DNA of 64,000 nt, taken from positions 11,891-75,890 of the forward strand of contig JAFIGI010000030.1 in NCBI GenBank assembly GCA_020831465.1. The letters run 5' to 3'. The DNA comes from Chlamydiales bacterium (lineage in GTDB: Bacteria; Chlamydiota; Chlamydiia; Chlamydiales; JAAKFR01). The translations under genes and the position numbers were made by a program. Under the pieces are notes generated by a model. The model saw only the letters and a list, made by a program, of their open reading frames with translations, had not been told where the DNA came from and ran no database searches. Shown piece after piece: positions 16,402-63,940 of this stretch (within the stretch, counting starts at the first letter, position 1; each line of letters opens with the position of its first letter).

Positions 16402-16475
16402 CTGGGTGTAGCGCAGCCTGGTAGCGCACTTGCATGGGGTGCAAGGGGGCGGAGGTTCGAATCCTCTCACCCAGA
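16402..16475 (+). tRNA. tRNA-Pro (anticodon GGG)
   Basis: Hand-folded cloverleaf. Acceptor CTGGGTG/CACCCAG, D arm GCGC-AGCCTGGTA-GCGC, anticodon arm CTTGC-ATGGGGT-GCAAG (GGG at 34-36, G37). Variable loop GGGGC, T arm GGAGG-TTCGAAT-CCTCT, discriminator A. CCA is not encoded. Confidence 0.9.
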
Positions 16476-36548: not shown

Positions 36549-36573
36549 ATTTTTCAACTGTTTCTGCTATATA
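36540..36573. repeat. Palindromic repeat, loop plus right arm
   Basis: aaaatgtaaatttttcaactgtttctgctatata. The stop codon (and last codons) of the SDR gene lie inside the element loop. Confidence 0.8.
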
Positions 36574-47653: not shown

Positions 47654-50347
47654 TTAGCTCTTTTTCACTTTTCCTTTGCTGAAAAGAGATGGGGATATCC
47701 TCTTTCTAAGATCCTCGATTATGAGGATGACTATCGGGGGAATGAGAAGGATCCCCCAATGACGGAAGGTCAAATGCTCTATCTGAAAAGGAATATTTAC
47801 ATAAGGAATGTAGAGGAGCGCTATTTGTGCGGCAAGTGCAATGCAAATAGAATAGATTAAATATCTATTTTTGAAGAGCCCTAGTTTAAAAAGGGGGATT
47901 TCATCGGAACGCATTTGGAGCGCGACCAGCATTTTAAAAATCACAACGGCTGAAAATACCATCGTTCTTGCCAATTCCAAGTTGTAATTGTTGAGCCCCC
48001 AGAGAAATAAAAAGTATATGCTGAAGCCAAGCATAAGAGATAAGTAAAGAATCCTATGTACCATTCCCCTATATAAAAGCCCTACTCTAGGATCTCGTGG
48101 AGGCATTTTCAATTCGTTGCCGATTTTCGGCTCTAATCCTAAGGGAACCGCTAAGATAACTCCTGTCACTAAATTGATCCAAAGAATTTGAAGGGGTAAA
48201 AGCGGAGGGAGGCCGAGGAGTGCAACACAGGAGATCAGGCCTAAAAGTTCTCCAAAGCATGTTGTAAGAAGAAAAGCGGCGACGTTTCTCAACCGGTTAA
48301 AAATGGCCCTTCCCTCTTCTACGGCAGCGACGATGGAGGCAAAATTATCATCGGCCAGAACCATGTCTGAAGATTCTTTCGCCACTTCGGTGCCCATTAT
48401 TCCCATTGCGATGCCGATATCCGCCGCCTCCAGAGCCGGCGCGTCGTTCACTCCATCTCCTGTCATGGCAACGATGTGGCGGAGTTTTTGAAAAGCTTGG
48501 ACAATACGTAATTTATGCTTCGGTTCGATGCGGGCAAAGACTCCAACGGTTTTTATCTTTTTTTCGAGCTCGTCGTCGCTCATTTTGGCCAACTCTTCTC
48601 CGGTTACGGCCTCTTTCGATTCGATTCCCAACTGATCGGCAATTGCTGCTGCTGTCAACTTATTGTCTCCCGTCGCCATCACAACGCGCATTCCCGCTTG
48701 CTTGCACAGTTCTATCGAACGTACTGCCTCTTTTCGTGGGGGGTCGTACATAGCGAAAACCCCCACATAGATCAATTTCTCCTTAAAGTCCTCTTCTTTC
48801 AAATGATCCGTTCCGGAAATCGGCGTATAGGCGACGGCAATCAGGCGGAAGGTCTTTTTGGCCAACGCCTCAAAATCGGCTTTGATTTTCTCCCGCATCG
48901 ACGCATCCAGTTCGACCACTTCGCTTCCCTTTAGATAGGAAGAACTGAAATGGAGCAGCTTCTCCGGCGATCCTTTTACCAGAACAGTTTTTTCATTTTC
49001 AAATAGATGGAGCGTCGCCATGTAGAGGTTTTCGCTTTGAAAAGGAATTTCTCCGATCCTCGGGTGTTCGGTATTGATATGCTCTATGTTGATTTTTGCC
49101 TTGGCTGCTGCGACGAGGAGAGCACCCTCTGTGGGATCGCCTATCACCTCGCAACGCTCTTCGGATTCCTTTGAGATAAGAGCGTCATTGCACAAGCTTC
49201 CAATCACCAGCATTTTTTTAACCGCAAAATCTTCGTTAGGGTCAAAGATTTTTTCTTCTTCGCTAAATTCTCCGGAAATGGAGTTTCCTTCGCCTGAAAG
49301 ATGCGCCCTTTTTTGCGCCGTGTAGAGCTCTCTCACAGTCATTAGATTTTCGGTCAATGTCCCGGTCTTATCGGAGCAAATGATGGTGGTCGATCCCAAC
49401 GTTTCGACTGCCATCATCCTTCGAATCACGGCGTATCTTTTTGCCATAATCGTCATGCCTGTCGCGAGCACAACTGTTACGGCAACAGGAAGTCCCTCCG
49501 GGATGGCTGCCACTGCGGCAGAGACGCTGAGCATGAAAATTTCGATTAAGTCCAAATCGTGATAGAAGCTTATACCGATAAAAATAAGAATGGCGAAAAA
49601 GACGATCAGAAGCATCCAGTTTCCCAGAGTATGGATGCTCTTTTGAAGAGGAGTTTTAACCGGCTTGGTTTCGCCTATCGCTTGTGCGATCTTTCCGATT
49701 TGAGTCTTCATCCCCGTTTCGACGACAAGCGCCGTTCCTTTACCGTAAGCAACGCTTGTTCCGCGAAAAACCATGTTCCTTCTATCGGCTATCGTAAGCG
49801 TTTCATCCATCCTATTCGTGTGCTTTTGAATGGGAAATGATTCTCCTGTTAAGGAAGATTCATTGATCTTAAGATTAGAAACTTCGATTAACCTTGAGTC
49901 TGCGGAAATAAAATCTCCCGATTCAAAGATGATAATGTCGCCCGGAACGACAAGCTCCGATGAAATGACCGCTATTTTCCCATCTCTCCTAACTCTCGAC
50001 TTGGGAGAGGTCATTTTTTTCAGTGCTTCCATCGCCTGAGCCGCTCTCGATTCTTGAAAAAAACCGATCAGGGTCATGATCACGATCGTTCCTGCTAAAA
50101 CGCTGCCGTCCAGTATGTTTCCTACCAAGAATTTGACAAGGGAAGAGAAAACCAGGATATAAACAAGAGGATTGATAAACTGACGGGCAAAAATTTTAAG
50201 GAACGAGGCCTTACCTTTCTCTACGATTTGATTGAGTCCGAATCTTTCCAGCCTTGCTTTTGCTTCCGCTTCAGAGATTCCACCCCGGTTGGATTTCAAT
50301 TCTTCCAAAGCTTCGTCGATAGAATCCGCGTGCCATTTTTTTTCCAT
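47654..50347 (-). CDS. Cation-transporting P-type ATPase (type II, Ca2+/Mg2+-like)
   Basis: 897 aa with LTGES, ICSDKTGTLT and MTGDGVNDAPAL, and a 10-TM layout. Confidence 0.9.
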   Translation of the reverse strand: MEKKWHADSIDEALEELKSNRGGISEAEAKARLERFGLNQIVEKGKASFLKIFARQFINPLVYILVFSSLVKFLVGNILDGSVLAGTIVIMTLIGFFQESRAAQAMEALKKMTSPKSRVRRDGKIAVISSELVVPGDIIIFESGDFISADSRLIEVSNLKINESSLTGESFPIQKHTNRMDETLTIADRRNMVFRGTSVAYGKGTALVVETGMKTQIGKIAQAIGETKPVKTPLQKSIHTLGNWMLLIVFFAILIFIGISFYHDLDLIEIFMLSVSAAVAAIPEGLPVAVTVVLATGMTIMAKRYAVIRRMMAVETLGSTTIICSDKTGTLTENLMTVRELYTAQKRAHLSGEGNSISGEFSEEEKIFDPNEDFAVKKMLVIGSLCNDALISKESEERCEVIGDPTEGALLVAAAKAKINIEHINTEHPRIGEIPFQSENLYMATLHLFENEKTVLVKGSPEKLLHFSSSYLKGSEVVELDASMREKIKADFEALAKKTFRLIAVAYTPISGTDHLKEEDFKEKLIYVGVFAMYDPPRKEAVRSIELCKQAGMRVVMATGDNKLTAAAIADQLGIESKEAVTGEELAKMSDDELEKKIKTVGVFARIEPKHKLRIVQAFQKLRHIVAMTGDGVNDAPALEAADIGIAMGIMGTEVAKESSDMVLADDNFASIVAAVEEGRAIFNRLRNVAAFLLTTCFGELLGLISCVALLGLPPLLPLQILWINLVTGVILAVPLGLEPKIGNELKMPPRDPRVGLLYRGMVHRILYLSLMLGFSIYFLFLWGLNNYNLELARTMVFSAVVIFKMLVALQMRSDEIPLFKLGLFKNRYLIYSICIALAAQIALLYIPYVNIPFQIEHLTFRHWGILLIPPIVILIIEDLRKRISPSLFSKGKVKKS

Positions 50348-50397: not shown

Positions 50398-51720
50398 ATG
50401 ATGCCATCCAAAATCGAAATATTTTATTCCGTCATCTTCTTCTGCGCGGTTGTTCACACCTTTTTAACATCCTATTTTTATTCCCTTCACACAAAGTTTC
50501 AAATCAAGTCGAAGAGAGATTTAAAGAAGGAAAATTTCTACCGGTTGCTTTCGGAAGTTTTTTATTTCCTAAGCGAAATTGAATTGGTTTTCGGCTTTTG
50601 GATTATTCCCTTGATTATTGGCCTTTTATTCGCTTCCAGATTGGAAGGAACCCTTCGATATCTTGAGAGCCGTGACTATACTTACGCGCTATATATGGCG
50701 GTTGTCGTTGCTTTCGCAAGCACTAAGCCGATTATCCTATTTGCGGAAAATATGTTGGAGCGGATCTCCCGTTTAGGAGGGAACAACGCCAAGTCTTGGT
50801 GGTGGACGATACTAACCGTCGGGCCTTTTTTGGATATTTTTTTAAAAGAGCCGGGGGCGATGACCATTGCATCGATTCTTCTGGCAAAAACTTGCTTTAA
50901 TTATATCGAAAGCAGACGCTTCAGCTACGGGACCCTGGCTCTACTTTTCATCAATATTTCGCTGGGAGGCCTTTTTGCACCCCATACATCGCGTTCGCTC
51001 TTTCTAGTCGCACAAGAGGAGAATTGGGACCTGGCCTATACGCTCTTGCGCTTCGGCTGGAAGGCGCTGCTTATTATCTTAGTAAACAACAGTTTTTACT
51101 ACTTACTTTTCAGAAAGGATTTTGCGAAGGATTCTTCGGGAATTTCCGCATTTTTAGAAAAAGAGAAGAGAATCAGTCCGCCGGTATGGCTCACATGTAT
51201 CCATCTTCTCTTCTTTCTGGCAATCATCGTCTCAAGCGAATATCCCCCCGTTTTTTTAGGGGTCTTCTTTCTCTTCCTTGGTGTGCATAGAGTCACCTTT
51301 CATTATCAGGGAGAAGGGCAAGGGCCGTTGCATATCATGCCGGCGATTTTAGTCGGCTTTTTCTTTGCCAGTTTGTTGATCCACGGGGAACTGCAAAGCT
51401 GGTGGGTGACCTATTTACTAGAGAGACTTGACTTTATGAAAGGATTGGCCATTTCAGGCATTCTCTCTGCCTTTATCGACAATGCGGTTGTTCTTTACTT
51501 TTTAGATCAAGTCCAACCCCTTCCGGAAGCAGCCTTGTACGCGATAGTAGCCGGGGCTTTGTCTTCCGGTTCTCTAACTCTGATGGCAAACGGTCCGAAT
51601 TTGATCGGCTATACAAATTTGAAACTATTCTTCGGAGGCACGATTTCGCTGGTCTATCTCTTCTTAGCCGCTTTGCCCCTTACGGTCGTTTCAATCCTGA
51701 TTTTTTGGATTTTCGCCTAG
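50398..51720 (+). CDS. Polytopic membrane protein, possibly DUF1504 / putative Na+/H+ antiporter family
   Basis: 440 aa, about 11 TM. The N-terminal FFCAVVHTF is reminiscent of that family. The family assignment is tentative. Confidence 0.6.
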   Translation: MMPSKIEIFYSVIFFCAVVHTFLTSYFYSLHTKFQIKSKRDLKKENFYRLLSEVFYFLSEIELVFGFWIIPLIIGLLFASRLEGTLRYLESRDYTYALYMAVVVAFASTKPIILFAENMLERISRLGGNNAKSWWWTILTVGPFLDIFLKEPGAMTIASILLAKTCFNYIESRRFSYGTLALLFINISLGGLFAPHTSRSLFLVAQEENWDLAYTLLRFGWKALLIILVNNSFYYLLFRKDFAKDSSGISAFLEKEKRISPPVWLTCIHLLFFLAIIVSSEYPPVFLGVFFLFLGVHRVTFHYQGEGQGPLHIMPAILVGFFFASLLIHGELQSWWVTYLLERLDFMKGLAISGILSAFIDNAVVLYFLDQVQPLPEAALYAIVAGALSSGSLTLMANGPNLIGYTNLKLFFGGTISLVYLFLAALPLTVVSILIFWIFA

Positions 51721-51924: not shown

Positions 51925-52392
51925 CTATGACTCTCCAGTTCGGTTGCTTTTTTTTTGCAACGAAGCGACGAGAACGAGAGCGCCTGCTACCAGTATTAAG
52001 TTCTTAAAGATATACTGCCCTTCAAGAGTCAGGCCAAAAGGACAAATCGTAAAACACTCTTCGGGGTCTGTGAATAAAGGAAAAAATGTTCCCGGGATCT
52101 TTAAGAAGAACATCAACAAGGCAAGCCGATTCAACTTCCTGATTGCAAAGAAAATGCCAATCAGGACTTCCCAAATACCCAAGTAGGTAACGAAGTAAGG
52201 AAACTGGAGCCAGCGCGTAGAACGGAAAACGAGTTCGTCGGCTGGACTGATTCCCAATACTTTAAGCCATCCGAACCAAAAGTATATGAGGGCAAACGAA
52301 TAGCGCAGTAAGGGCAGCGAATGCCTTTCTGCCCACCGGCAGATTTTCGCTTCTATTTTGAAGTATTTTTTTAAAATGTTTTTAGTACCCAT
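51925..52392 (-). CDS. Small 4-TM membrane protein (DoxX/DUF417-like)
   Basis: The track ORF 51925..52428 is trimmed to the internal ATG at 52392. Motif LRYSFALIYFWFGWLK. The start still overlaps the upstream gene end by 22 nt. Confidence 0.55.
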   Translation of the reverse strand: MGTKNILKKYFKIEAKICRWAERHSLPLLRYSFALIYFWFGWLKVLGISPADELVFRSTRWLQFPYFVTYLGIWEVLIGIFFAIRKLNRLALLMFFLKIPGTFFPLFTDPEECFTICPFGLTLEGQYIFKNLILVAGALVLVASLQKKSNRTGES

Positions 52393-53243
52393 GCCAAAAC
52401 TGCAATTAGTATTCCTGTTCCTAGGCAAATAAGGGAGAGTAGGAGAACAAGGCCCTTTTCTTTAGCCGTAGGCTTAGGCGTTTCGTGGTGTTTATGGACA
52501 AGATGCGCCTGCTCCATTTCCATCGGCTCTTCTCCCGCTTTGCGTACGGTCATCATCCCGTGTTTGAGGCCGGTTTTGACAAGCCATCTGTTCATCGGGT
52601 AGGCGAGGATCCCTGAGATAATGGTCGCCAAACTGATCTTTCCCCAAAAATGGATGGAGGTAGCAACGGCTGCCGAGGGCTCGAGCAAATTCCAGATGAC
52701 CATCGTGGGAATCATTCCCGTCATGATCATGTTCATCGAGGTAAACTCGGGATAAAACGATCTGCGGAGCGCGTTGAAATAGGAGCCGCCCATCATATCC
52801 TTCATAAAAAGCGCTTGGAAGATGAAGAGGCCGAAAAAGAAGCCCGCTAAGTACTCAATGGTCAATTCGAGAGGCAGGGAGATTGCAAAAAAGGTGATCA
52901 CGATCGCAGCGATGACGATCCCCGTCACATCTCCGGCGAGGCAATGAACCATCGATCCAAGCGATTGTTTCCAAAGCGGTTCGATAAACTTCTCATGGGT
53001 TCCCGGCATCGGCTCCTTGCAGGAAATGAGGTAGAAAAACAAGCCGACAGGTCCCGTATAGAGGGTGACGAGCCACCAGCCGACTTTCATCACCTTAGCC
53101 TCGGGCGTGATCACAAGCAGATCATAAGTCATATAAATCAAGGAGAGTCCGGTCAGGACAAACCAAAAGATTAAAATTCCGTCGATCACTCTTTGCCTCG
53201 CAAAGTAAATTTTGCTATTGTCATCTAGCATGAGTGATGCCAA
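52371..53243 (-). CDS. Integral membrane protein (possibly DUF4396-like)
   Basis: 290 aa, about 6 TM, with MVHCLAGDVTG. The TTG at 53243 or, more likely, the ATG at 53231 is the start. Confidence 0.6.
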   Translation of the reverse strand: MASLMLDDNSKIYFARQRVIDGILIFWFVLTGLSLIYMTYDLLVITPEAKVMKVGWWLVTLYTGPVGLFFYLISCKEPMPGTHEKFIEPLWKQSLGSMVHCLAGDVTGIVIAAIVITFFAISLPLELTIEYLAGFFFGLFIFQALFMKDMMGGSYFNALRRSFYPEFTSMNMIMTGMIPTMVIWNLLEPSAAVATSIHFWGKISLATIISGILAYPMNRWLVKTGLKHGMMTVRKAGEEPMEMEQAHLVHKHHETPKPTAKEKGLVLLLSLICLGTGILIAVLAWVLKTF

Positions 53244-55059
53244 AAACGCTTATCGCGAGCTTTATGATGTAGTCATTCCAGATCTGGATTACTTTATCCG
53301 TCAGATCGACTGCCGCGACGGATGTCCGGTCAATACGGACGGCCGGGGCTACATGCTCGCGATACAGAGGGGAGATCTTCTAGAAGGGTATAAAATTGCC
53401 CGCGGCCCCAACCCCTTCGCTTCGATCTGCGGGATAATTTGCGGCGCTCCCTGCGAAATGGCATGCCGGCGCGACAGGGTCGATAAAACGCTGACGATCC
53501 GCGCTCAGAAACGCTATCTGGACGAGTGGTTCGGCCTCGATAAGGAAGCTCATATTAAATCACTTGAGTATAGTTATTCACGTGGAACGCTCAATCCCCG
53601 CCCTAATGGGCTGCGTGTAGCATGCGTCGGAGCGGGGGTCGCCTCTCTCACCTGCTCTCATGACCTGCTGCGTTTGGGATACCAAGTCGATCTCTATGAG
53701 CAGATGCCCCTTCCGGGAGGGATGCTGGTTTACGGCGTTCCAAATTATCGGTTAAAGAACGCGATTCCCCGAAATGAGTGCTCGGCAATCGAGTATCTTG
53801 GCGCCAAGATCTTTTATAACACGAAAGTTGGACGCGACATCACCCTGACTGAATTGCAGGAGCGGTACGATGCCGTTTTTATCGGGAATGGGCTTTGGAG
53901 ATCGCGCGGCCTTCCCCTTCCCGGTTTCGATGCTCCCGATATCATCCGCGGCGTCGAGTATTTACGTGTCCTTTGCGCCGAAGAGCGATGGAAGATCGGC
54001 AAGCAAGTGGTCGTGGTTGGCGGAGGGAACGTCGCCTTCGACGTCGGCCGCACCTCAGTCCGCAACGGGGCCGAAAAGGTGACGATGGTCTGTTTGGAGT
54101 CGCGCGACGAGCAGACGGCCGACGAGTTCGAGATCGAAGACGGGAGAGAATAGGGGATTGAAATCATTAACCGCGTCGGACCACTCTCGGTTGAGCGGAA
54201 TGCTAAAGGAAAAATCGTAGGATTGAAAGTGCAGCGGATTCGCTCCCTTCTCGATGCCGACGGTAAATTCGCACCCGATTTCATCCCCGACACGGAGTTT
54301 ATCATCCCGTGCGACACGATTGCGCTTGCAATCGGACAGACGATGGACATGAGTCTTTTCGACGGATGGGATAAGCGCGACGAGCTTCAATTCGATCGCG
54401 GCGTCATCAAAACTGAGCGTGAAACAGGGCGTACTTCAGTTAAAAACGTCTACGCCGGGGGAGATGCGGCCTTTGGGGCGGCATTGTTTATTACGGCGAT
54501 CCGCCACGGGCAAAACGCCGCTCGGGCGATTGATGCGGACTTGCGCGGAACCAAGCCCTATCAGGAGTTCGTCGGGATGTTCGCGACGATTCCCCCCATG
54601 CGCGACAAAACCTATTTGCGAACGGAGTGGGGGCTACCAACCCTCCAGCCTGCTGCTGTCCGGGTCCGTAATTTTAACATGGTGGAGAATAATTACACGC
54701 CACAGGAGGTTCAAAGTCAAGCGAGTAGATGCTTGCAATGCCATGTTTCACCGGTTTTCGATGGTTCACTCTGCATCAAGTGCAACGGGTGCGTCGACGT
54801 CTGCCCGACAAACTGTTTGAAGCAGGTCCCCCTTTCCAAGATTAATCTCGACCTAGCTGAAGGGAAGATGCGCCGGGCTGTCGACAATTATTATGGAATC
54901 GATTCGGCGCATATGGACGATGAAGATTTAGATAGAATGGGGTCAGCAATGTTAAAAGATGAAGACCTTTGCATCCGCTGCGGTCTTTGCGCAGAGAAGT
55001 GTCCCACGCAGGCGGTGACGATGGACGCAATGAACTATTCATATCGTTGGATCGGTTAA
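53230..55059 (+). pseudogene. GltD-like NAD(P)H/FAD oxidoreductase fused to a 2x[4Fe-4S] ferredoxin domain, interrupted by one in-frame TAG (54151-54153)
   Basis: Track ORFs 53212..54153 and 54223..55059 are in the same frame. The read-through text is ..ADEFEIEDGRE*GIEIINRVGPLSVERNAKGKIVGLKVQR.. and is colinear with the GltD ..NAREEGVEF.. region, so the TAG sits where Glu (GAG) is expected. N-terminal Cys clusters CRDGCP / CGIICGAPCEMAC. Two Rossmann motifs, VGAGVASL and VVVVGGGNVAFD. C-terminal CLQC..CIKCNGCVDVCP and CIRCGLCAEKCP. Confidence 0.75.
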
Positions 55060-55062
55060 AGG

Positions 55063-55200
55063 ATGGAGATTTTCTGGTTTCTTTTGCTCTCGCTAATCGG
55101 AGGTTTGGCAGGAGTCGCCGTCTTCGTCTATCAAATGCGGAAGGGACAGTTTCAGGATCCTGAGGATCCAAAATACCAAATGTTTAGGGATGAGGAATAA
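55063..55200 (+). CDS. ccoS: cbb3 oxidase maturation protein CcoS/FixS (45 aa, below the ORF-track cutoff)
   Basis: MEIFWFLLLSLIGGLAGVAVFVYQMRKGQFQDPEDPKYQMFRDEE has one TM followed by the K.GQF.D...... motif and an acidic tail, as in CcoS. AAGG lies just upstream, and the gene starts 3 nt after the preceding stop. Confidence 0.7.
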   Translation: MEIFWFLLLSLIGGLAGVAVFVYQMRKGQFQDPEDPKYQMFRDEE

Positions 55201-55362
55201 TGAGGCTATCCAACTATTCGAATAATTTGCTTTTTGAGTCTTTTTCCACATATTTTATAACCGCTTCTTGGCCTACTTGTCTAAGTATGTCCTGCGAAGC
55301 GGTTCTAAAACCTGTGAAAAAATCCAACAAAAATCAAATCACTCGAATAGTGAGATAGCCTC

Positions 55363-55872
55363 ATGCCTAAGTATCGGAACAGCTTGAATGTGGTGAATAA
55401 GGGAAAGGACCCGAAAATTTCGCGCCGCCGCTTTCTTTCCCTTGTGGGGTGGGGAGCGGTCGCCGGCGTCAGTGGCGCTTTAGGGGCAGCCATGCTCGGA
55501 TATCTCTATCCCAACGCGTTGAAGATTCCTCCCAGCCTCTTTTCTCTCGGCCGTCCGGAAGATGTGCTCGCTTCGGAAGGGAGGGTCTTTAATCCGAAGC
55601 AAAAGGTCTTCGTGGAAGTCTCGCGCGGACGTGTCCGCTGCATGACGGCGATTTGCACCCATTTGGGATGCACAGTGAATGCCGTCGAAACCGGCTACAA
55701 ATGTCCCTGCCATGGATCGACCTACGACCTTAGCGGTAATAATACGGGAGGGCCGGCTCCGCTCCCCTTAGTTTATTTTCTAATCTACAAAGGCGCCTCG
55801 GGCGAACTGCTTGTCGACAAGAGCCGTAGGATCGAAATCCCATCGGAGGGGTGGTACTCACCAACTGCATAA
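55363..55872 (+). CDS. Rieske [2Fe-2S] subunit of a cytochrome b complex
   Basis: 169 aa with Tat motif [14 protein letters not shown] and cluster boxes CTHLGCTV and CPCHGSTY. Confidence 0.92.
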
Positions 55873-57201
55873 ATGGCTAAATTCACAGGAAAAAAGAAGC
55901 CGAGCTTCTTAGAGATGATTGAACATTTTCCGGCCAACTTTCTCCGGTCGATCTTCCGGCACAACTATCCGAATAACGATGTCGACCGTTCCGAGGTTGT
56001 CTTCAAGAACTTCTTCCTTCACATCCATCCCGTGAAGTGCCATAAAGCCGTGCTCGACCCCTTCCATACGCTTGGCCTCGGAACGATCACCGCGTCGCTC
56101 TTTTTCCTTCTGGTGATTACAGGGGTCGTCCTGATGTTCTTCTACATCCCGGCCGTCGACCGGGCCTACACGATTTTAGTCGACTGGCTTGACACCACAC
56201 CCTTCGCCATGATGTGGCGCAATATCCACAGATGGTCGGCGCAGCTGATGGTTCTCTTCGTCTTCTTGCACATGAGCCGCGTCTTTTACATGGGATCCTA
56301 CAAGGGTGAGAGAAAATTCAACTGGGTTGTGGGAGTGATGCTGCTAGTCGTCACTCTTTTGCTCTCGTTTACGGGTTATCTCCTTCCATGGGATCAACTC
56401 GCCTTTTGGGCGATTACCGTAGGGGCCGAGATCGCCGGCTATGTGCCAAGCATTCCGGGTATGCAATACAATATCAACAAACTCATGCTTTTGGGTTCAA
56501 CGACTGTGGGCCAGGATGCTCTGATCCGCTTCTATGTCCTTCATGTCATGGTCCTGCCCCTGCTTGCCGGGACGCTGGTCGGCGTCCATTTCTGGCGGAT
56601 ACGGAAAGATGGCGGACTGGCACGGCCTCCCGATAAATGGCGCCCCGATCCCTACCGGGTTGTGCAACGCTCCGATACGAAAGAGTCGTTTGCTCCCGGC
56701 GTGCGCCGTACCTATGGGTTGATGGAGCTTGTGCGCGGCTCCTGCCCCACTGTCGACAGAGGCCCCGAAAATTATATCTTCACCTGGCCCCATCTCCTGC
56801 GCGCCGAGTTGGCCGTTTTCTTGGGAACGGCTGCGTTGACGATCCTCCTCTCGCTCTTCATCGATGCTCCGCTCGAAGAGATCGCTAACCCTTCCAAGCC
56901 GACCAATCCTGCGAAAGCGCCCTGGTATTTTCTCGGCTTGCAGGAAATGGTTGCCTATAATGCCTTTTGGGGCGGCGTCGCGATTCCCACTTTGATCGTC
57001 GTCGGGTTGGCGCTTATCCCCTATTTCGACCGCAACCCCTATGGGGAGGGAGTCTGGTTCCATAGAACCCGCTATCTGGCGATTTTCCTCTATACTGCCT
57101 TTATGACCTTCCAGGGAATCCTGGTCATTATCGGCGTCTTTTTTCGCGGGCCGAACTGGAGTTGGATTTGGCCTTGGACCGAAAATTTTGCGAGGCATTA
57201 G
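55873..57201 (+). CDS. Cytochrome b (fused b6-like plus subunit IV-like)
   Basis: 442 aa. Helix B His pair is H-x13-H (IHRWSAQLMVLFVFLH). Helix D pair is H-x14-H (HVMVLPLLAGTLVGVH), which is b6-type spacing. A PEWY-equivalent APWYFLGLQE sits in the C-terminal half. GLGTIT replaces the b6 CLGGIT, so there is no haem ci cysteine. Confidence 0.9.
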   Translation: MAKFTGKKKPSFLEMIEHFPANFLRSIFRHNYPNNDVDRSEVVFKNFFLHIHPVKCHKAVLDPFHTLGLGTITASLFFLLVITGVVLMFFYIPAVDRAYTILVDWLDTTPFAMMWRNIHRWSAQLMVLFVFLHMSRVFYMGSYKGERKFNWVVGVMLLVVTLLLSFTGYLLPWDQLAFWAITVGAEIAGYVPSIPGMQYNINKLMLLGSTTVGQDALIRFYVLHVMVLPLLAGTLVGVHFWRIRKDGGLARPPDKWRPDPYRVVQRSDTKESFAPGVRRTYGLMELVRGSCPTVDRGPENYIFTWPHLLRAELAVFLGTAALTILLSLFIDAPLEEIANPSKPTNPAKAPWYFLGLQEMVAYNAFWGGVAIPTLIVVGLALIPYFDRNPYGEGVWFHRTRYLAIFLYTAFMTFQGILVIIGVFFRGPNWSWIWPWTENFARH

Positions 57202-57204
57202 CGT

Positions 57205-60200
57205 TTGAAATATCAAGATTTCTACCAGTTATCGCTCCTTTTTTTTGCGCTCCTTTCGGTCTTTGGTGTCGGCTATTTTGCCTACAAAGAATTTTTTCCC
57301 GAATACAAGACCTATCAACATGCCTACATTGACCTCGAGAGATTCCGGTCGAGCTATACAGGCGAAAAACCTGCACCCTTTTCCACGGGGATCAAGCAGA
57401 TCCTGATTGCGGATGAGAAGAACGGTCCCGAAATCATCGACCGGTGCATCTCCTGCCATGTCGCAATCGACCTTCCCCATTTTTCGCCTCTGCGTGTTGC
57501 CAGGGATGTGAATGATCAGGTGATTTACTCCGCGGACGGGAAGGCCGAACTCGAAACAAATCCCGATTATATATGGGACCGTCTCGAAATGCGGATCGAC
57601 GAGTTGAAGCACCCTGCCTATCATGCGGAGCTTGGAGAGGGCAAAGATAAGTGGCTTGCCGAGGCGGAATTTCTGGAGGGGCTCAGGACGCAGATCATCG
57701 ATGGGCGCAGGATCGATATGGCAAAAGTTCTTAGGATGCACCCCTTGATCGGTTCGGAAACGCGGCCGTTCGAATACCACCCCATGGAGGAGTATGGGTG
57801 CACTTCGTGCCATAGTGGAAACGGACGCTCACTTTGCGCCAAACGGGCGCATGGGCCTCTTTACGACGAAGACTACGAGCCTGCTTACGAGATAAAAAAG
57901 CCGCAGTTTACCGAAAAAGATGAAGAAAACGATCCCCCCTTTTCCCGGATGTACAACCACAAGCCCGGTCATGAACTCGTCTTCCAAACCACTCCGCTTC
58001 TGGGAGGCGATTTGATCGTAGCCAAGTGTGTACAGTGCCATCAATCCTCTTCAACCCGTGTGAAAGAAACGGTTGATAAAGCTGCCTATTTCGCCGACCG
58101 GAAAAAAGAGCGGATTGATCGGATTCGCGAGGGGTTGGAGAATGACAAAGAAGCTCTTGTCAGCCTCATGGGTTTGCAGCGTTCTTTGGCCAAACGAGGG
58201 AGGGAAGGAACGATCGATTGGCTAAAAGAAGAGCTCGGAAATGATCATGTCTCACTGAAGGAGAAAGAGGCGTTGGAGGGGCAACTTACCTTTCTCCAGA
58301 GTCATGAGAAGCCCGATTCCGCGATTAAGGAGGAATTGATTCGCCTCACCGGATCTGAGGAGGGCGGAGGATCGATCGCGGAGAAAAAGGCGGCCCTCGT
58401 AAAAGAAAAAAAGATCCTCGAGCGCTTTCAAAATAGCGCGGAGTCTCTCACTTTCGTCGAGCAGGATCCCGATCTTTTGTCCAAGATCGGCACTGAAGTC
58501 GATCAGTTGATTGTATCTTATAACCGCGGCAAAGAGCTTTTTGTCTCCCAGGCTTGTTATGCCTGCCACCGTATCGCCGGCTATTCGCGCGCGAGCATCG
58601 GTCCCGAATTAACCTACGCGGGCACTAGCTATCCCTGGTTCATCAAAGAATCGATCGTCTGGCCGCAGGCCGATCTTCCCTCTTCGACAATGCCCAATTT
58701 CCGCCTTGACCATGAAGAGATTGAAAATTTGATGACCTTTCTGATGGCGCAAACGGGCTGCACCAAGGCCGTTTCCGAAGTCGATTATCACATTTCGCTC
58801 AAGGATTGGGAAGCGGGCGGGAAGCTCCCTTGGGAAAAGCCGGTCGCGCCGACTAAGATCAAGGACGCACGCGCGGGAATGCACGTTTTCGTCACCGAAG
58901 GGTGCGCTTCTTGCCATAAGCTCGAAGGGTTCGAATCGAATGTCGGATTTGTCAAAGGAGGGACTTTAGAGGAGCGTGAGTGGTTTTATAGATTGATCCC
59001 CGAGCAGGCAGCAGGGTCGCGCATCGCCGAGATCGTGGAGACGAAAGCCGAAGAGATCGACGCGCGCATTGTCGAAGGGGTGCGCCAAGACGGGATTATC
59101 GAAGAGATCCGGGCGAAATATCCCGGACTTGTCGAGGGCTTTTACTCGAATTTCAAGTATCCGTCGCGGGCAATGAATACCGCTTATAAGGATGATCCGG
59201 AAAAATTGAAGGCTTATCAGGAGCGCCTCAACCGCGTCCTTATGATCTACATTCAGCTCTACGGGATGGGGCGCGACATCGCTCCCCACTTGAACTGGTC
59301 CGGAATATACCGGGATGACGCTTGGTTGCTTGGCCATTTCCATAATCCGAGTGCCTACACGGCGCGCTCAATCATGCCTGTGATGCCCTTTGACGATACG
59401 AAATTTTACATGCTCAACAACATGCTCCGACAGCTTGGGGCGAAAAACCGCGATCGGCTGCGGGAAATTTGGCGCGAGCAAGGATTTGATCCGCCACTTG
59501 CTTACCATTTGCTTTGCAGCTCCTGTCACGGGGTGCAGCGGCAAGGAAACGGAATTATCTCCGAATGGATTTATCCGATTCCGAAAAACTTGCGCAACCC
59601 CGTCTTCTTGCGCAACTTAACCAAAGAGCGCGCAATCGATTCGATCAAGCACGGGGTTAGGGGAACACCGATGCCGCCGTGGGGTGAAGCGGCCTCCGCG
59701 ACCGATCCTGATCCTGTGCTTACGCATCCAGAGATCGTGCAGTTGGTCGACTGGCTCTATCAAGGGCTTCCCGAAGAGCACCGCAGGGAGAGAAAAGAGG
59801 ATTACGAAAAATGGAGCTACTCCCCCCATGATGTTGTCAAAGAGATGAGAAGAGAGCGCGACTTCCTTGAACCCGCACCCCCTAAGAATGAAAACTTGGC
59901 CGAGCTTGCTTCAGACTACTTCGAATCCCGCCCCAATCCGGTGCCGGGCCCTGACAAAGAGCTCTATTACATCCGGGATCAATACTTCACGGATTCTAAT
60001 CTTAAAGAGGCTGAGAAGTTCTATCTCGTGAATTGCGCGACATGCCACGGAAAGGAGGGCGGCGGAACGGGTTTGCGCGCCACTTCGATGGTAGAAGCGA
60101 AACCCCGCATGCTGACCAACCTCCCTTGGCTGCGCACCCGCGACGATCTACGCTTGCTCCGTTCGATCAAATATGGCGTTCCGGGCACCGGAATGATCCC

Positions 60201-60939
60201 CTGGGGCGATATGACCACATCCGCCCAACGGATGCAGCTGGTGATCTTCATCCGGGAATTGACCCGCACCCAGATGTTGAATGATGAGTTTGAAGAGGTG
60301 CTTTACGACGCTTTCGACCGCCAGATTCAAACAATCGAAGAGGCCCGCGTTTCGGAGTATGCACGCCTTGAAGCAGATGAAGCCGCGCTTAAAAGCGCTC
60401 AAGAGAAGCTCTACGAAGGGGGCGGTCTCTCTCCCGAAGAAGCGGGAAGGCTCTATGTCAAGATCGCGAAGTTGAAAAAAGAGGCTGCGGAAGGTGAAGC
60501 GCAAGACGACCGGTTTAAAGCCTTGATCGAACTTGTGAAAGAGCAAAAAGAATCTTTCCGCGGGGCGGGGGGTCAACTAATTGGGACCCAGCTTCCCGAT
60601 CGGACTCTTCGCGATTTCTTTGAGATGGTGCGCGGCGAAGCGCTTCGCTTTCATTTTGAAAAGGGAAAGCTTGAAATCAAAGAGAATCGCGAAGCGCCTA
60701 CGCCGAATAGCCTGATCGATAATCTGAATCTAAAGATCGCCGAGATCCGGGAGAGAATTAAAATCGAAGAAGCGAGAATTCCTTCTCCAGAGAGGGGAAA
60801 AACCATTCAAAACTTGATGGAAGAAGAAGGAACCTATATCAATTTAAGGACGAAGCTCGCCTATCAGTTCGCGGAGGCGAAAAAAATGCGCAACAAGCAA
60901 CGGGAAATATATGAGACTCTCTACCAAAGTCATCCATGA
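57205..60939 (+). CDS. Membrane-anchored heptahaem c-type cytochrome (1244 aa)
   Basis: TTG start 3 nt after the cyt b stop, then an N-terminal TM. Seven CxxCH motifs: CISCH, CTSCH, CVQCH, CYACH, CASCH, CSSCH, CATCH. Modules 4-5 look FixO-like (..GPEL..W..H..P....MP.F) and modules 6-7 look FixP/class-I-like (CxxCHG..G.G......GxxGTxMPxWG). The C-terminal ~200 aa are charged and coiled-coil-like. Confidence 0.85.
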   Translation: MKYQDFYQLSLLFFALLSVFGVGYFAYKEFFPEYKTYQHAYIDLERFRSSYTGEKPAPFSTGIKQILIADEKNGPEIIDRCISCHVAIDLPHFSPLRVARDVNDQVIYSADGKAELETNPDYIWDRLEMRIDELKHPAYHAELGEGKDKWLAEAEFLEGLRTQIIDGRRIDMAKVLRMHPLIGSETRPFEYHPMEEYGCTSCHSGNGRSLCAKRAHGPLYDEDYEPAYEIKKPQFTEKDEENDPPFSRMYNHKPGHELVFQTTPLLGGDLIVAKCVQCHQSSSTRVKETVDKAAYFADRKKERIDRIREGLENDKEALVSLMGLQRSLAKRGREGTIDWLKEELGNDHVSLKEKEALEGQLTFLQSHEKPDSAIKEELIRLTGSEEGGGSIAEKKAALVKEKKILERFQNSAESLTFVEQDPDLLSKIGTEVDQLIVSYNRGKELFVSQACYACHRIAGYSRASIGPELTYAGTSYPWFIKESIVWPQADLPSSTMPNFRLDHEEIENLMTFLMAQTGCTKAVSEVDYHISLKDWEAGGKLPWEKPVAPTKIKDARAGMHVFVTEGCASCHKLEGFESNVGFVKGGTLEEREWFYRLIPEQAAGSRIAEIVETKAEEIDARIVEGVRQDGIIEEIRAKYPGLVEGFYSNFKYPSRAMNTAYKDDPEKLKAYQERLNRVLMIYIQLYGMGRDIAPHLNWSGIYRDDAWLLGHFHNPSAYTARSIMPVMPFDDTKFYMLNNMLRQLGAKNRDRLREIWREQGFDPPLAYHLLCSSCHGVQRQGNGIISEWIYPIPKNLRNPVFLRNLTKERAIDSIKHGVRGTPMPPWGEAASATDPDPVLTHPEIVQLVDWLYQGLPEEHRRERKEDYEKWSYSPHDVVKEMRRERDFLEPAPPKNENLAELASDYFESRPNPVPGPDKELYYIRDQYFTDSNLKEAEKFYLVNCATCHGKEGGGTGLRATSMVEAKPRMLTNLPWLRTRDDLRLLRSIKYGVPGTGMIPWGDMTTSAQRMQLVIFIRELTRTQMLNDEFEEVLYDAFDRQIQTIEEARVSEYARLEADEAALKSAQEKLYEGGGLSPEEAGRLYVKIAKLKKEAAEGEAQDDRFKALIELVKEQKESFRGAGGQLIGTQLPDRTLRDFFEMVRGEALRFHFEKGKLEIKENREAPTPNSLIDNLNLKIAEIRERIKIEEARIPSPERGKTIQNLMEEEGTYINLRTKLAYQFAEAKKMRNKQREIYETLYQSHP

Positions 60940-62341
60940 CGACAGACCTGTAAAGCAGATGCTCTACCCCGCTCTCTTCTTTTTGGTCATCGGCCTTTTC
61001 ATCGGCGTTTTCATCTCCTACAACGGCTTTTTGGTTCCCGACTACTTCAAGGGGCAGTATATCCATTTCGGGCGGGTACGGCCTGTCCATGTGACCGTTG
61101 TCACCCTTCTCTGGCTGTTATCCGCGAACATGGGGCTGATGTATTTTTTTGTCCCCCGATTGTGCGGATCGCCCCTTTGGAGCGTCAAACTCGCCACTGT
61201 TACAAACTTCACGTGGTGGATCAGTGTGATTATCGGAGCCTTTTCCTTCCCTCTAGGGACGAATTTCGGGTGGGAATACGCCGAGCTTCCCATGACGATC
61301 GGGCTGATTCCCATCAAATTGTTCGTTTCCTTAGCCTGGGTCCTCTTTGCGACCAATATATTCATGACGATTCTCAACCGGCGCCATAAGCAGATGTACG
61401 TCTCGCTTTGGTATGTCATGGGAACGCTGATCTGGACCTCTTTCACTTTCATCGTGGGAAATTTCGCCATTCAGTGGGTTCCCCAGGGCATCTCGAGGGT
61501 GAATACGAGCTTCTTTTACGTTCACAACCTCGTCGGGCTGATTTTTACCCCCATGGGTTTGGCCGCTGCCTACTATTTTATCCCCAAAATTTCGGGATCG
61601 CCGATTTTCAGCCACCGCCTCTCGATGATCGGCTTTTGGGGGATCGCGTTTGTCTATGCCTGGATCGGAGCCCACCATATGCTGCACGGCCCCGAGTCGC
61701 AATGGCTCCAAACGACCAGCATTATCTTTTCGATGTGGCTGATCATCCCCGTCTGGACGGTTGTCGCGAATCTTTTGGGAACGGTCAAATCGCAATGGGA
61801 GATGTACAGCAAAAGCGCCCCTTTGCGTTTTTTGACGATGGGCGTCGTCTTCTACCTGATCGTCTGCTTTCAAGGATCTGTTCAAGCTCTGCGCAACGTC
61901 AACGAGGTCATCTCCAAGACCGACTGGATCATCGGCCATGCCCACATGTCACTTCTTGGGACATTTACCTTTTTTGCCATCGGAGGGGTCTACTACGCCA
62001 TCCCGAAGATTACTGGAAAGCCGCTCTGGTCGGAGAGGCTAGCCGATTGGCACTTCACATTCACCCTTTTCGGCTCTGTCTTAATGTTTGCCTCCCTCTG
62101 GCTGGGCGGCTTCAACCAGGGACTTCAATGGGCCAATTGGGGAACCGGGAATACATATGCCCAATTTCACGAAAACATCAGTCGCATGCCCTTTCTAACA
62201 ACTCTTGAGCTGATGTGGTGGTGGTGGTTTGCGCGGACGATTTCGGGAATCCTCATCCTGGGGGGGAATGCCATTTTTCTCTTAAACATGATGAATACCG
62301 TTGTTCTTGAAAGCCAAAAGGAGCCTGCAGCAGCCACATGA
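60911..62341 (+). CDS. ccoN: cbb3-type haem-copper oxidase subunit I
   Basis: 476 aa, 12 TM, with FGRVRPVHVTVV, WIGAHHMLHG and IIGHAHMSLLG. It overlaps the upstream gene by 29 nt. Confidence 0.88.
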   Translation: MRLSTKVIHDDRPVKQMLYPALFFLVIGLFIGVFISYNGFLVPDYFKGQYIHFGRVRPVHVTVVTLLWLLSANMGLMYFFVPRLCGSPLWSVKLATVTNFTWWISVIIGAFSFPLGTNFGWEYAELPMTIGLIPIKLFVSLAWVLFATNIFMTILNRRHKQMYVSLWYVMGTLIWTSFTFIVGNFAIQWVPQGISRVNTSFFYVHNLVGLIFTPMGLAAAYYFIPKISGSPIFSHRLSMIGFWGIAFVYAWIGAHHMLHGPESQWLQTTSIIFSMWLIIPVWTVVANLLGTVKSQWEMYSKSAPLRFLTMGVVFYLIVCFQGSVQALRNVNEVISKTDWIIGHAHMSLLGTFTFFAIGGVYYAIPKITGKPLWSERLADWHFTFTLFGSVLMFASLWLGGFNQGLQWANWGTGNTYAQFHENISRMPFLTTLELMWWWWFARTISGILILGGNAIFLLNMMNTVVLESQKEPAAAT

Positions 62342-63564
62342 GCGACCAAAAGAAAGGGATAAATCGTCTCGAATGGTCTGCCGCTCTGACGGTCATCGGA
62401 GTGATCGTGCTTTTCTCTTCGGCGATCGCCGTTACCTTGATCGCTCCCGAGTTCATCGATCCCAGTTGGAAGCAGGCTTCGAGCACCTATCAGGTACAGA
62501 TGTATGAAGTCTCCGATCCGAACGTCTATGTGAGCACATCGAATCCCGGCGGGTGGGGCCTTCAGTATGTCTACCACTTGCAGGAGGGATTTACGCTCCA
62601 TGCCTATCAGGAGAGCGAGATCGTCCGCATCATCGCTCCCGAAGAGCTTGAGAGATATGTGACGCGCCGCGGCGGCTCGGAGCAGATTTTGACCACACGC
62701 GTTCTTTTGCTCCGTCCCGCCCAAAACGCGCAGGAGGTTCAAAAAAGACTGCAAGCCGAGTGGAAAGCGGGCCAAACCGAAGAGAGGTTTCCTCCCCATT
62801 TCGAAATTTTGGAACTCTTCGATCCGCAAAAAAGAGAAGCCTTTGCCATTACCGAGACCGACGGCGTCGTCGAAAACTGGGTCGACGAGAACTTCACAAT
62901 CCTTGATAAAACGCCCCCTTACGCGACTGAGAAGGGAGTGATCTATATCAACAATCCAAAAGAATACCGGATCTCCTCAACAAATTATCTAGGAAGCCCT
63001 TACTGGGTCTATGACGAGAACGGGGAACCGGTCAAAGATTTGACTGAGCTCAAAGAGGGGAAGCTCCGCTTTCTATCCCGCGAGGCGCTCATTAGGCTTG
63101 GAGAAGAGATCTATCGGATTGAAGGGTGCTGGTATTGCCATACAGACCAAACGCGCACCCTTGTCCAGGATACCGTTTTAAACGGGTCGGCCGACTACCC
63201 TGCTCCCCCCTCCTCCGCCAACGAATACATCTATCAACGGGTTACCTTTCCCGGAACGCGCCGCATTGGCCCCGACCTCTCTCGCGTCGGAATCAAGCGC
63301 CCACACCGCGATTGGCACATGTCCCATTTTTGGTCCCCCACATCGGAAAGCAAGGGGAGCATCATGCCCTCCTTTGGCCACTTCTTCGACGACGACCCCG
63401 CCGGGACATTCGCAAGTCCATACAGCGTGCCGAACTACAAATTCGAGGCGATTTTTCAGTACCTCATGACAAAAGGAACGCGCATCACTCCGCCTAACAA
63501 GGCGTGGTGGCTCGGACTCGACCCCATTCAAACCCTCGACATCATCGAAGGGAGGAAAAAATGA
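62338..63564 (+). CDS. ccoO: cbb3 oxidase monohaem subunit II (CcoO/FixO) with a ~200-aa insertion
   Basis: 408 aa. N-terminal TM, CWYCH at aa 264-268, then RRIGPDLSRVG..W...HF..P......SIMPSF. Typical CcoO proteins are roughly half this length. Confidence 0.8.
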   Translation: MSDQKKGINRLEWSAALTVIGVIVLFSSAIAVTLIAPEFIDPSWKQASSTYQVQMYEVSDPNVYVSTSNPGGWGLQYVYHLQEGFTLHAYQESEIVRIIAPEELERYVTRRGGSEQILTTRVLLLRPAQNAQEVQKRLQAEWKAGQTEERFPPHFEILELFDPQKREAFAITETDGVVENWVDENFTILDKTPPYATEKGVIYINNPKEYRISSTNYLGSPYWVYDENGEPVKDLTELKEGKLRFLSREALIRLGEEIYRIEGCWYCHTDQTRTLVQDTVLNGSADYPAPPSSANEYIYQRVTFPGTRRIGPDLSRVGIKRPHRDWHMSHFWSPTSESKGSIMPSFGHFFDDDPAGTFASPYSVPNYKFEAIFQYLMTKGTRITPPNKAWWLGLDPIQTLDIIEGRKK

Positions 63565-63719
63565 CCGACGGAGAAGGGCTTTACGGATTCATCTTGCATT
63601 ACGCCCTTCTCTTCGCGTTTTTTGGAAGCGCCTTCATCGTCTTTCTCTATTTGTGGAAAAAAAAGAGGCTCGATATGGATGAAGAGCCAAAATATTTTCT
63701 TTTTAATGATGAGGATTAA
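63561..63719 (+). CDS. ccoQ: CcoQ/FixQ-like single-TM subunit
   Basis: 52 aa: MTDGEGLYGFILHYALLFAFFGSAFIVFLYLWKKKRLDMDEEPKYFLFNDED. ATGA overlap with the ccoO stop. One TM with an acidic tail. Confidence 0.6.
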   Translation: MTDGEGLYGFILHYALLFAFFGSAFIVFLYLWKKKRLDMDEEPKYFLFNDED

Positions 63720-63721
63720 AG

Positions 63722-63940
63722 ATGGAAGAAGAAGTTCCGGCTACGGAAGACCATAAAGTCCCGAAATTTCTCTACGCGGCCTACCTGATCGTGTTTGTGT
63801 GGGGCATTTGGGCCTTTATTGCCTATTGGAACGGTTCGAGTGGATGGTTCGATAGAGGGAACTGGAAGCAGCTCCAGGAAGCAGCCCATACAACCTATCC
63901 CTTCGAAGAGAAGGAATCCTACTTAGAAGGTGGAAAATAA
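63722..63940 (+). CDS. FixP_N-like single-TM protein without any haem-binding domain
   Basis: 72 aa. VPKFLYAAYLIVFVWGIWAFIAYW resembles the N-terminal anchor of CcoP (..P.WW...F..TI.....Y..). There is no CxxCH. Confidence 0.5.
   Translation: MEEEVPATEDHKVPKFLYAAYLIVFVWGIWAFIAYWNGSSGWFDRGNWKQLQEAAHTTYPFEEKESYLEGGK

Follow-up and report, generated by a model that had tools for sequence, protein, structure and literature searches.

The window analysed here, a stretch of 64,000 nucleotides (nt) from a Chlamydiales bacterium (contig JAFIGI010000030.1), carries at positions 53212-63940 of the + strand nine co-directional genes, which encode in this order a GltD/NfnB-like flavin and iron-sulfur (FeS) protein, a CcoS-like protein, a Rieske protein, a cytochrome b (cyt b), a heptahaem cytochrome c, the oxidase subunits CcoN and CcoO, and two small membrane proteins. 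An earlier annotation made from the letters alone (the sequence-only reading) had described a tightly packed, same-strand cluster of nine genes, and the open reading frame (ORF) calls reproduced its strand, coordinates and spacings. The successive intergenic distances are 3, 162, 0, 3, -29, -4, -4 and 2 nt, where the -4 nt value for ccoO and the first small ORF takes the ATG at 63561 as the start; this ATG is preceded by GGAGG and overlaps the ccoO stop codon as ATGA. In this environmental chlamydia, the cluster is a genuine and compact operon. Eight of its genes are intact, but the GltD-like gene is not a single ORF and contains an in-frame TAG.

For comparison, the cyt b was searched against a library of 50%-identity representatives, followed by a scan of one genome per species that yielded 80 loci (cited by L numbers) and by tblastn with the window proteins; in high-GC loci, the genes were taken from + strand ORF calls. 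The same nine genes were found in the same order in the complete genome of Waddlia chondrophila (L001) and on a 270-kb contig of the closest relative (L003), both with an intact GltD-like gene of 611-617 amino acids (aa), and the set also occurs in L023, L033, L056, L085 and other chlamydial loci. None of these has a cytochrome c1 or CcoP gene. Among the real genes of the 64-kb window, CxxCH motifs occur only in the heptahaem protein and CcoO, and hence no c1-like or CcoP-like gene lies nearby; a dihaem CcoP gene was found neither in the window nor in the orthologous loci. The proposed joining of a Rieske/cyt b complex to a cbb3 oxidase without c1 or CcoP thus holds here and in every orthologous locus examined. 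In one chlamydial locus (L084, 11555-16573), three opposite-strand genes, aconitase and two others, are located between the heptahaem gene and ccoN.

The Rieske/cytochrome b core, the heptahaem cytochrome and the cbb3 oxidase

The Rieske [2Fe-2S] protein (55363-55872, +; 169 aa) has a twin-arginine signal/anchor, recognized by the NCBIfam twin-arginine translocation (TAT) signal model, and matches Pfam Rieske at 3e-10. Its motifs are CTHLGC (CxH) and CPCHGSTY (box II, CxxH), the latter of the SY type, which is kept in the Rieske proteins of all chlamydial loci. The best PDB matches are 9rk3_A (9e-17), the Rieske proteins of b6f complexes and 9rk4_A. From the molecule names and PMC12954380, we took 9rk3 and 9rk4 to be the 2025 Kuenenia structures.

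The adjoining cyt b gene (55873-57201, +) encodes a 442-aa protein with about seven transmembrane (TM) helices, in which a b6-like N-terminal half is fused to a subunit-IV-like C-terminal half. The protein matches Pfam Cytochrome_B at 3e-37 and the NCBIfam families ExtP (2e-69) and ExtQ (1e-18), and in the PDB it matches cytochrome b6 at 1e-37 versus 1e-26 for the cyt b of bc1 complexes. The four haem-ligand histidines (H124, H138, H237 and H252 in alignment numbering) are all conserved, and the Qo motif is APWY. The CxGG cysteine for haem cn is absent, as the chlamydial sequences read TLGLG where the Chloroflexi relatives read FCLGG, and the n-side motif HFWRIRKDGG is like that of b6 and unlike that of bc1; for these two reasons, a canonical Qn/Qi site is not evident. 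The N-terminal motif LHIHP contains a His that is invariant in all 83 loci and, judged by its position, is probably the counterpart of the extra haem b ligand proposed in the anammox models. The 50%-identity cluster representatives nearest to this cyt b come from Solibacter/Acidobacteria and the Planctomycetota, and in a neighbour-joining tree without support values the chlamydial cyt b is sister to four cbb3-linked acidobacterial ones. The chlamydial sequences also share a Cys (C56) in the n-side motif HPVKCHK, a position occupied in nearly all other relatives by Val, Ile, Thr, Leu or Ala.

Between cyt b and ccoN lies the gene for a membrane-anchored cytochrome c of 1244 aa (57205-60939, +), with exactly seven CxxCH motifs and a single hydrophobic TM helix at its N-terminus. 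The predicted layout comprises three haems with probable bis-His ligation, four His/Met class-I domains, helical insertions and a helical tail of ~220 aa. In 39 homologues the seven motifs are invariant, save that the His of motif 4 is kept in 38, and the candidate ligands Met 496, 724, 823 and 997, together with His 179, 192 and 216 of the N-terminal trihaem part, are invariant throughout. The exception is Waddlia (L001, 10001-13876), in which motif 4 reads CYACL with His replaced by Leu, alone among the 39 in having no proximal His. Hundreds of full-length homologues with 41-77% identity are present in Chlamydiales, Parachlamydiaceae and Waddlia chondrophila. The number of these homologues, and the presence of one in the complete genome of Waddlia, rule out an assembly chimera for this ORF, and the protein represents a conserved family.

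All seven motifs align column for column with the seven of the ~600-aa acidobacterial proteins described below, and the ~600 extra residues of the chlamydial protein form insertions at 95-170, 281-420 and 588-691 plus the C-terminal helical tail. The sequence-only reading had assigned FixO-like and FixP-like modules to the protein. The seven haems stand, but the modules are less specific than their names: the Pfam FixO match is marginal (30.4 bits, cutoff 29.6), and the FixP-like modules are PF13442, the generic class-I cytochrome c domain. Within NCBIfam, residues 690-744 resemble, weakly yet significantly, the haem domain of CcoO (E = 9e-11) and residues 439-512 the second haem domain of CcoP (E = 7.5e-10), both far under the family cutoffs. 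Weak resemblance to QcrC was seen in NCBIfam (2e-8) and in a Foldseek search of the PDB (7q21_C, E = 0.2) with an AlphaFold2 (AF2) monomer model of residues 1-1041 (pLDDT 69.6).

The catalytic subunit CcoN (60911-62341, +), whose start overlaps the heptahaem gene by 29 nt, matches Pfam COX1 at 5e-86 and the Pseudomonas stutzeri subunit 3mk7_A over its full length at 5e-60. In P. stutzeri numbering, H60, H207, H257, H258, H345, H347, Y251, E122 and E125 are conserved, and E323 and H337 are replaced by Q and S, respectively. Since the six His ligands, the helix-7 Tyr and the Ca-site Glu are all kept, CcoN is a genuine C-family (cbb3) oxidase. CcoO (62338-63564, +; 408 aa), which overlaps ccoN by 4 nt, consists of a TM anchor, an insertion of ~200 aa and a monohaem domain with the motif CWYCH; it matches Pfam FixO at 6e-22 over residues 254-352 only and CcoO chains in the PDB at 1e-9. 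By their profile scores, both subunits are divergent members of the cbb3 family, under the NCBIfam equivalog cutoffs (268 bits against 583 for ccoN; 60 bits against 200 for ccoO). The acidobacterial CcoO orthologues, at 189-200 aa, are of canonical size. Compared with L026-L028, both periplasmic haem subunits are therefore expanded in Chlamydiae, CcoO by ~200 aa and the heptahaem protein by ~600 aa.

Two small single-TM proteins follow, one of 52 aa in the ccoQ position (63561-63719, +) and one of 72 aa in the ccoP position (63722-63940, +), the latter with its own stop codon and no haem motif. Both are conserved in the chlamydial and acidobacterial clusters. Searches of Pfam and NCBIfam at E <= 10 gave no match to FixQ, FixP_N or any other family, and the same was true of the Waddlia, L003 and acidobacterial versions. 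The 52-aa protein resembles the CcoS of the window (pairwise BLASTP, E = 4e-7), and a PDB profile search with the 72-aa protein returned CcoP N-termini only at the non-significant E values of 1.3 and 6.1. The earlier labels ccoQ and FixP_N are accordingly positional only; of the proposed ccoNOQ set, ccoN and ccoO stand on their COX1 and FixO matches and ccoQ has no profile behind it.

The flavoprotein gene, its in-frame TAG and a hairpin insertion

The first gene (53212-55059, +; likely start at the ATG at 53230) encodes a GltD/NfnB-like, NAD(H)-binding protein with FAD and two [4Fe-4S] clusters, extended by a C-terminal ferredoxin domain with two more [4Fe-4S] clusters, as assigned from Pfam, the PDB and the orthologues. 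The Pfam domains are Fer4_20, Pyr_redox_2 and two copies of Fer4. Its best PDB matches are of the NfnB/Stn type (9bov, 8oh5, 9n5u, 4ylf_B and 5jca_L; 1e-82 to 1e-47) and rank above GltD, while the NCBIfam model PRK12771 is matched at 2e-116, under the family cutoff. Neither a TM helix nor a signal peptide is predicted. The family and domains of the oxidoreductase said to head the cluster are thus upheld by Pfam, but its reading frame is broken.

The two halves of the gene are ORFs 53212-54153 and 54223-55059, which lie in one frame and are separated by a TAG at 54151-54153 (+). In L003 and Waddlia, the aligned codons are GAG and GAA, respectively, both encoding Glu, and the orthologues in L001, L003, L084 and L085 are intact single ORFs of 610-617 aa. 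A genetic code with reassignment or readthrough of TAG was ruled out, because TAG is the ordinary stop codon of seven of the 40 ORFs in the window, including cyt b. To judge from the alignment, the TAG is either a nonsense mutation, which would then be very recent, or a sequencing error. With this premature stop, the genome at hand may lack a working NAD module.

The second gene (55063-55200, +) encodes a CcoS/FixS-like protein of 45 aa with one TM helix, which matches Pfam FixS (2.3e-9, 37.3 bits, cutoff 23.1) and falls short of NCBIfam ccoS (22.2 bits, cutoff 28.35). Its position is retained in Waddlia, L003 and the acidobacterial loci. In the window, this gene and the Rieske gene are separated by the 162-nt gap, which folds into a near-perfect long hairpin with a minimum free energy of -65.4 kcal/mol (z = -11.55). 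In L003, the same junction reads GATAATGCCTAAG, with no gap and with a TAATG stop/start overlap. Folding and the comparison with L003 identify the gap as a palindromic insertion of 163 nt, the duplicated ATG included (55203-55365, +), which resembles a miniature inverted-repeat transposable element (MITE) and lies exactly at the ancestral TAATG overlap of the ccoS stop and the Rieske start. The strong structure claimed for the gap is therefore borne out (z = -11.6, rounded), and it is a lineage-specific insertion. It leaves both flanking frames intact and restores the Rieske ATG. No further copies of the element were found in the window or the related loci, and the region has no Rfam match at gathering thresholds. 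On the strength of the predicted fold, the hairpin could attenuate or stabilize the polycistronic mRNA.

The TAG, at a conserved Glu codon, and the insertion, missing from the relatives, raise the question of whether the cluster is decaying here under relaxed selection in a host-dependent bacterium, all the more as respiratory complexes have been lost repeatedly across the Chlamydiae (PMC5826181; PMC9816063). We regard this as unlikely. The remaining eight genes are intact, and the GltD-like protein, with the TAG as its sole lesion, shares 86% identity with the L003 version, a value that fits those of the neighbouring proteins (70-93%). In addition, the insertion spares both frames and regenerates the start codon, and the single G>T change could have arisen during sequencing or assembly.

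Distribution of the flavoprotein module and of the whole gene set

Outside the Chlamydiae, the whole set was found in four acidobacterial loci (L026-L029) in the order FixS-like, Rieske, cyt b, heptahaem, CcoN, CcoO, small protein 1, small protein 2 and GltD-like. The heptahaem proteins of these loci have 601-634 aa and seven CxxCH motifs, and their CcoN is 45-49% identical to the chlamydial one. A GltD-like/ferredoxin gene on the same strand beside Rieske/cyt b was more widespread, occurring in at least 54 of the 80 loci and in about 14 phyla, a lower bound since several contigs are incomplete. The lineages include Acidobacteriota, Planctomycetota, Verrucomicrobiae, Chlamydiota, Omnitrophota, Calditrichaceae, Nitrospirota, Zixiibacteriota, Chloroflexota, Gemmatimonas, Kryptoniota, Ignavibacteriaceae, Acidimicrobiia, a deltaproteobacterium and Abyssobacteria. 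The combination, which the sequence-only reading described as discussed only for anammox Planctomycetes, is therefore not confined to anammox bacteria and Chlamydiae. The parallel that it drew with them nevertheless has substance, in that the Rieske protein is nearest to 9rk3/9rk4, a published tree groups the Waddlia cyt b with those of Kuenenia, and a planctomycete locus with a Kuenenia-like order (L060: Rieske, GltD-like, short cyt b, subunit IV, multihaem) encodes a GltD-like protein homologous to residues 28-596 of that in the window.

In most of these 54 loci, cbb3 genes are absent and different multihaem or terminal modules are present, which ties the flavoprotein module to the bc core and not to the oxidase. 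In the abyssobacterial locus L004 (11392-18516), for example, GltD-like, Rieske and cyt b are followed by a nine-haem cytochrome, a 1166-aa protein with a TAT signal and an FeS protein, the pair being molybdoenzyme-like. From such gene orders, an NAD-linked bc module appears to have been joined to different terminal enzymes across phyla.

The immediate neighbours of the GltD-like gene would suit a different role. In the Chlamydiae it adjoins ccoS, and CcoS is an assembly factor in canonical cbb3 systems; in the Acidobacteria it adjoins DsbD_2 and CcoG/FixG. The protein could then be a maturation or accessory reductase of the oxidase, handling copper or haem in the manner of CcoG and merely co-transcribed with CcoS, without being a bc subunit. 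We consider this highly improbable, given that in ~45 non-chlamydial loci without cbb3 genes in the vicinity the GltD-like gene directly precedes Rieske-cyt b, and that some loci have other terminal modules, such as the molybdoenzyme-like gene of L004 or those of the anammox-like L060. Furthermore, the homologous Kuenenia protein co-migrates with bc complexes in a complexome study, as that study is cited in PMC12954380 and PMC5600118. Since the flavoprotein lacks a signal peptide and TM helices and is present whatever the terminal module, it is better explained as a cytoplasmic partner of cyt b than as an oxidase assembly factor.

The GltD-like proteins of L001-L079 differ at the end of the nucleotide-binding beta-2 strand (within residues ~260-310 of the window protein). 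The motif there is VCLE in the proteins of Chlamydiae, Acidobacteria and most planctomycetes, and YRR in those of the Chloroflexi and of the anammox-like L060. By the Rossmann rule, the acidic VCLE would be of the NAD type, and the basic YRR, as in GltD and NfnB, of the NADPH type. This pattern suggests that the nucleotide specificity has switched within the family.

Around the cluster, a divergent upstream gene for a DUF4396 membrane protein (52371-53243, -) recurs in L003 (5332-6150) and L085 (3430-4083) and is absent from this place in Waddlia; a functional link with the cluster is possible. An exact-match look-up of CcoN, aimed at following the contig past position 64000, had no hit. Other genes of the window code for a Na+/H+ antiporter (50398-51720), a P-type cation ATPase (47654-50347), a photolyase (36567-37925) and two-component regulators, and a tRNA gene (16402-16475) is its sole Rfam match at gathering thresholds.

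Proposed electron flow and comparison with known systems

Taken together, the gene content, the gene order and the translational coupling (neighbours overlap by 4-29 nt or lie 0-3 nt apart) make it probable, in our judgement, that the operon encodes one dedicated quinol-to-O2 chain attached to a cytoplasmic, NAD(H)-binding flavin/FeS module. Quinol, presumed to be menaquinol, would be oxidized at the Qo site of the b6-type Rieske/cyt b core. One electron would pass from the Rieske protein through the seven-haem wire to the haem c of CcoO, and on to CcoN and O2, without a soluble cytochrome c, so that the heptahaem protein would occupy the place of cytochrome c1 or f and the bc and cbb3 parts would form a hard-wired, or at least dedicated, assembly. 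The GltD-like protein would dock on the cytoplasmic face of cyt b and, as in the models of the anammox complexes, trade electrons with the chain of low-potential b haems.

In which direction these electrons might run is a separate question. For the anammox complexes, to which the present module is homologous, a bifurcation mechanism has been proposed and Rieske potentials above +300 mV have been measured (PMC12954380). Transferred to the chlamydial operon, one quinol electron would go to O2 and the other uphill, through the low-potential b haems and the FeS/FAD protein, to NAD(P)+; we regard this as possible but doubtful, and extend the same reserve to its corollary, in which the assembly acts as an O2-driven quinol:NAD(P)+ reductase. 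Consistent with bifurcation, the SY motif of the chlamydial Rieske protein is that of Kuste4569 (+303 mV), the flavoprotein is closest, among solved structures, to bifurcating enzymes of the NfnB/Stn type, and the cyt b combines a missing haem-cn Cys with a b6-like HFWRIRKDGG motif and no evident canonical Qn/Qi site. However, NADH is plentiful in the Chlamydiae and Acidobacteria, which are heterotrophs, and the chlamydiae carry Nqr. The NAD-type LE site, which replaces the YRR of the anammox-like and Chloroflexi homologues, disfavours a role in supplying biosynthetic reductant, and the SY and SF motifs occur family-wide, with or without a GltD-like gene. Because the chlamydial site is of the NAD type and that of the anammox-like homologue of the NADPH type, the direction of electron flow proposed for anammox is not simply transferable.

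We tentatively favour, over bifurcation and with somewhat less than even confidence, the opposite flow, in which NADH oxidation would feed the n-side as is thought for ferredoxin:NADP+ reductase (FNR) and b6f, giving a self-contained NADH-to-O2 chain. The heterotrophic lifestyle of both groups and the VCLE motif speak for this input. Co-purification of FNR with b6f is mentioned in PMC5600118. In its strongest form, for which we have limited confidence, the proposal is a single membrane machine in which the outer side of a Q-cycle core would connect to O2 through the seven-haem wire and the cbb3 oxidase and its inner side to NAD(H) through FeS clusters and FAD, working either as a bifurcase that makes NADH or as an NADH-to-O2 respirasome. 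Either would be new to biochemistry as a mode of respiratory coupling. The former would be an aerobic counterpart of the anammox proposal, and the latter would dispense with an entry of the complex I or Nqr type.

Several observations weigh against the dedicated chain with its attached NAD(H) module. When tested as trackers of a GltD-like neighbour, the SY/SF motif of the Rieske protein showed no correlation, being present family-wide and hence not discriminating, and the LHIHP His of cyt b failed as well; since it is also kept in relatives without such a neighbour, it is not diagnostic. The Foldseek search with the AF2 model of the heptahaem protein returned only generic class-I c-type domains, none of them CcoP-like or c1-like. 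Contiguity of bc and cbb3 is not obligatory, because three unrelated genes intervene in L084. The acidobacterial GltD-like gene has DsbD_2 and CcoG/FixG next to it, on its downstream side, and that of the window contains the premature stop.

Parts of this system have been recognized before. Dharamshi et al. (2023) listed CcoNO and a PetBD bc complex among the chlamydial respiratory complexes (PMC9816063), and Baymann et al. (2012) placed the Waddlia and Parachlamydia cyt b in group A2 together with Kuenenia complexes 1 and 2 (PMC3509893). According to Dibrova et al. (2017), NAD(P)-binding FeS oxidoreductases accompany the cyt b genes of subfamily G "in many other cases", and long cyt b genes lie in large conserved operons of unknown function (PMC5600118). 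For the Kuenenia complexes, AlphaFold3 models accompany the bifurcation proposal (PMC12954380). In the literature searched, we found no account of the cbb3-linked, heptahaem, CcoP-less architecture or of its sharing by Chlamydiae and Acidobacteria, and the architecture appears to be undescribed. The core interpretation of the sequence-only reading was reasonable and several of its labels were over-read: the cluster belongs to a widespread, partly recognized family of Rieske/cyt b complexes that bear an NAD(P) oxidoreductase, in this case coupled to the reduction of O2, and is not an oddity of the Planctomycetes-Verrucomicrobia-Chlamydiae (PVC) group.

The functional question posed by such complexes dates from the anammox proposal, and anammox bacteria are hard to grow and not open to genetic manipulation. 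What is new here is a close variant whose partner, O2 via cbb3, is defined and strongly exergonic and which is conserved both in Acidobacteria and in Chlamydiae, among them the cultured Waddlia chondrophila, as well as a flavoprotein module that accompanies the bc clade in at least 14 phyla. Tractable organisms (Waddlia in host cells, Acidobacteria in pure culture) are thereby available for work on the mechanism, for which the NAD-type and NADPH-type sites offer a clear comparison. The "complex III" and "cbb3" of environmental chlamydiae would thus be one atypical unit without c1, CcoP or, within the sequence examined, a separate cytochrome c, which bears on models of chlamydial oxygen physiology and energy parasitism.

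Among the closest known systems, the acidobacterial loci L026-L029 have the same gene set and order except for the position of the GltD-like gene, and seven collinear CxxCH motifs. They differ in the length of the heptahaem protein (~600 aa) and of CcoO (~190 aa), and in having the GltD-like gene downstream, by DsbD_2/CcoG. The two anammox complexes of Kuenenia (Kuste4569-4574 and Kustd1480-1485) both combine a GltD/NfnB-type FAD/FeS protein with a Rieske protein and a b6-type cyt b, and a multihaem cytochrome c replaces c1 or f in them, as it does here; their Rieske proteins are the closest solved relatives and have the SY motif in common with the chlamydial one. Their cyt b, however, is split into a short cyt b and a five-TM subunit IV and has haem cn, whereas the chlamydial protein is fused to subunit IV (~7 TM helices) and has no CxGG. 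In the operon described here, the c subunit carries seven haems, a cbb3 oxidase takes the place of an HAO-like octahaem protein as the high-potential partner, the nucleotide site is of the NAD-type LE form where the anammox-like homologue has YRR, and the organism is a heterotrophic endosymbiont.

With canonical CcoNOQP oxidases (P. stutzeri 3mk7 and 5djq; Rhodobacter capsulatus), the operon shares CcoN over its full length, including the six His, Tyr251 and the Ca-site Glu, and the monohaem domain of CcoO with its CxxCH and the Met of SIMP. It departs from them in having no CcoP, small subunits without FixQ or FixP_N matches, a 200-aa insertion in CcoO, and the substitutions E323Q and H337S. 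The known hard-wired supercomplexes, actinobacterial bcc-aa3 with its dihaem QcrC and the CIII2-cbb3 of R. capsulatus, likewise use an anchored multihaem c in place of c1 and a soluble cytochrome c. The chlamydial unit would differ from these in carrying seven haems and not two, an oxidase of the C family and not the A family, and an added NAD(H) module. The last comparison, with b6f and its bound FNR, is an analogy. FNR is unrelated to the GltD/NfnB-type protein, and b6f has the haem cn that the cyt b described here lacks, but in both cases a b6-type core would be paired with an n-side flavoprotein able to feed quinone reduction.

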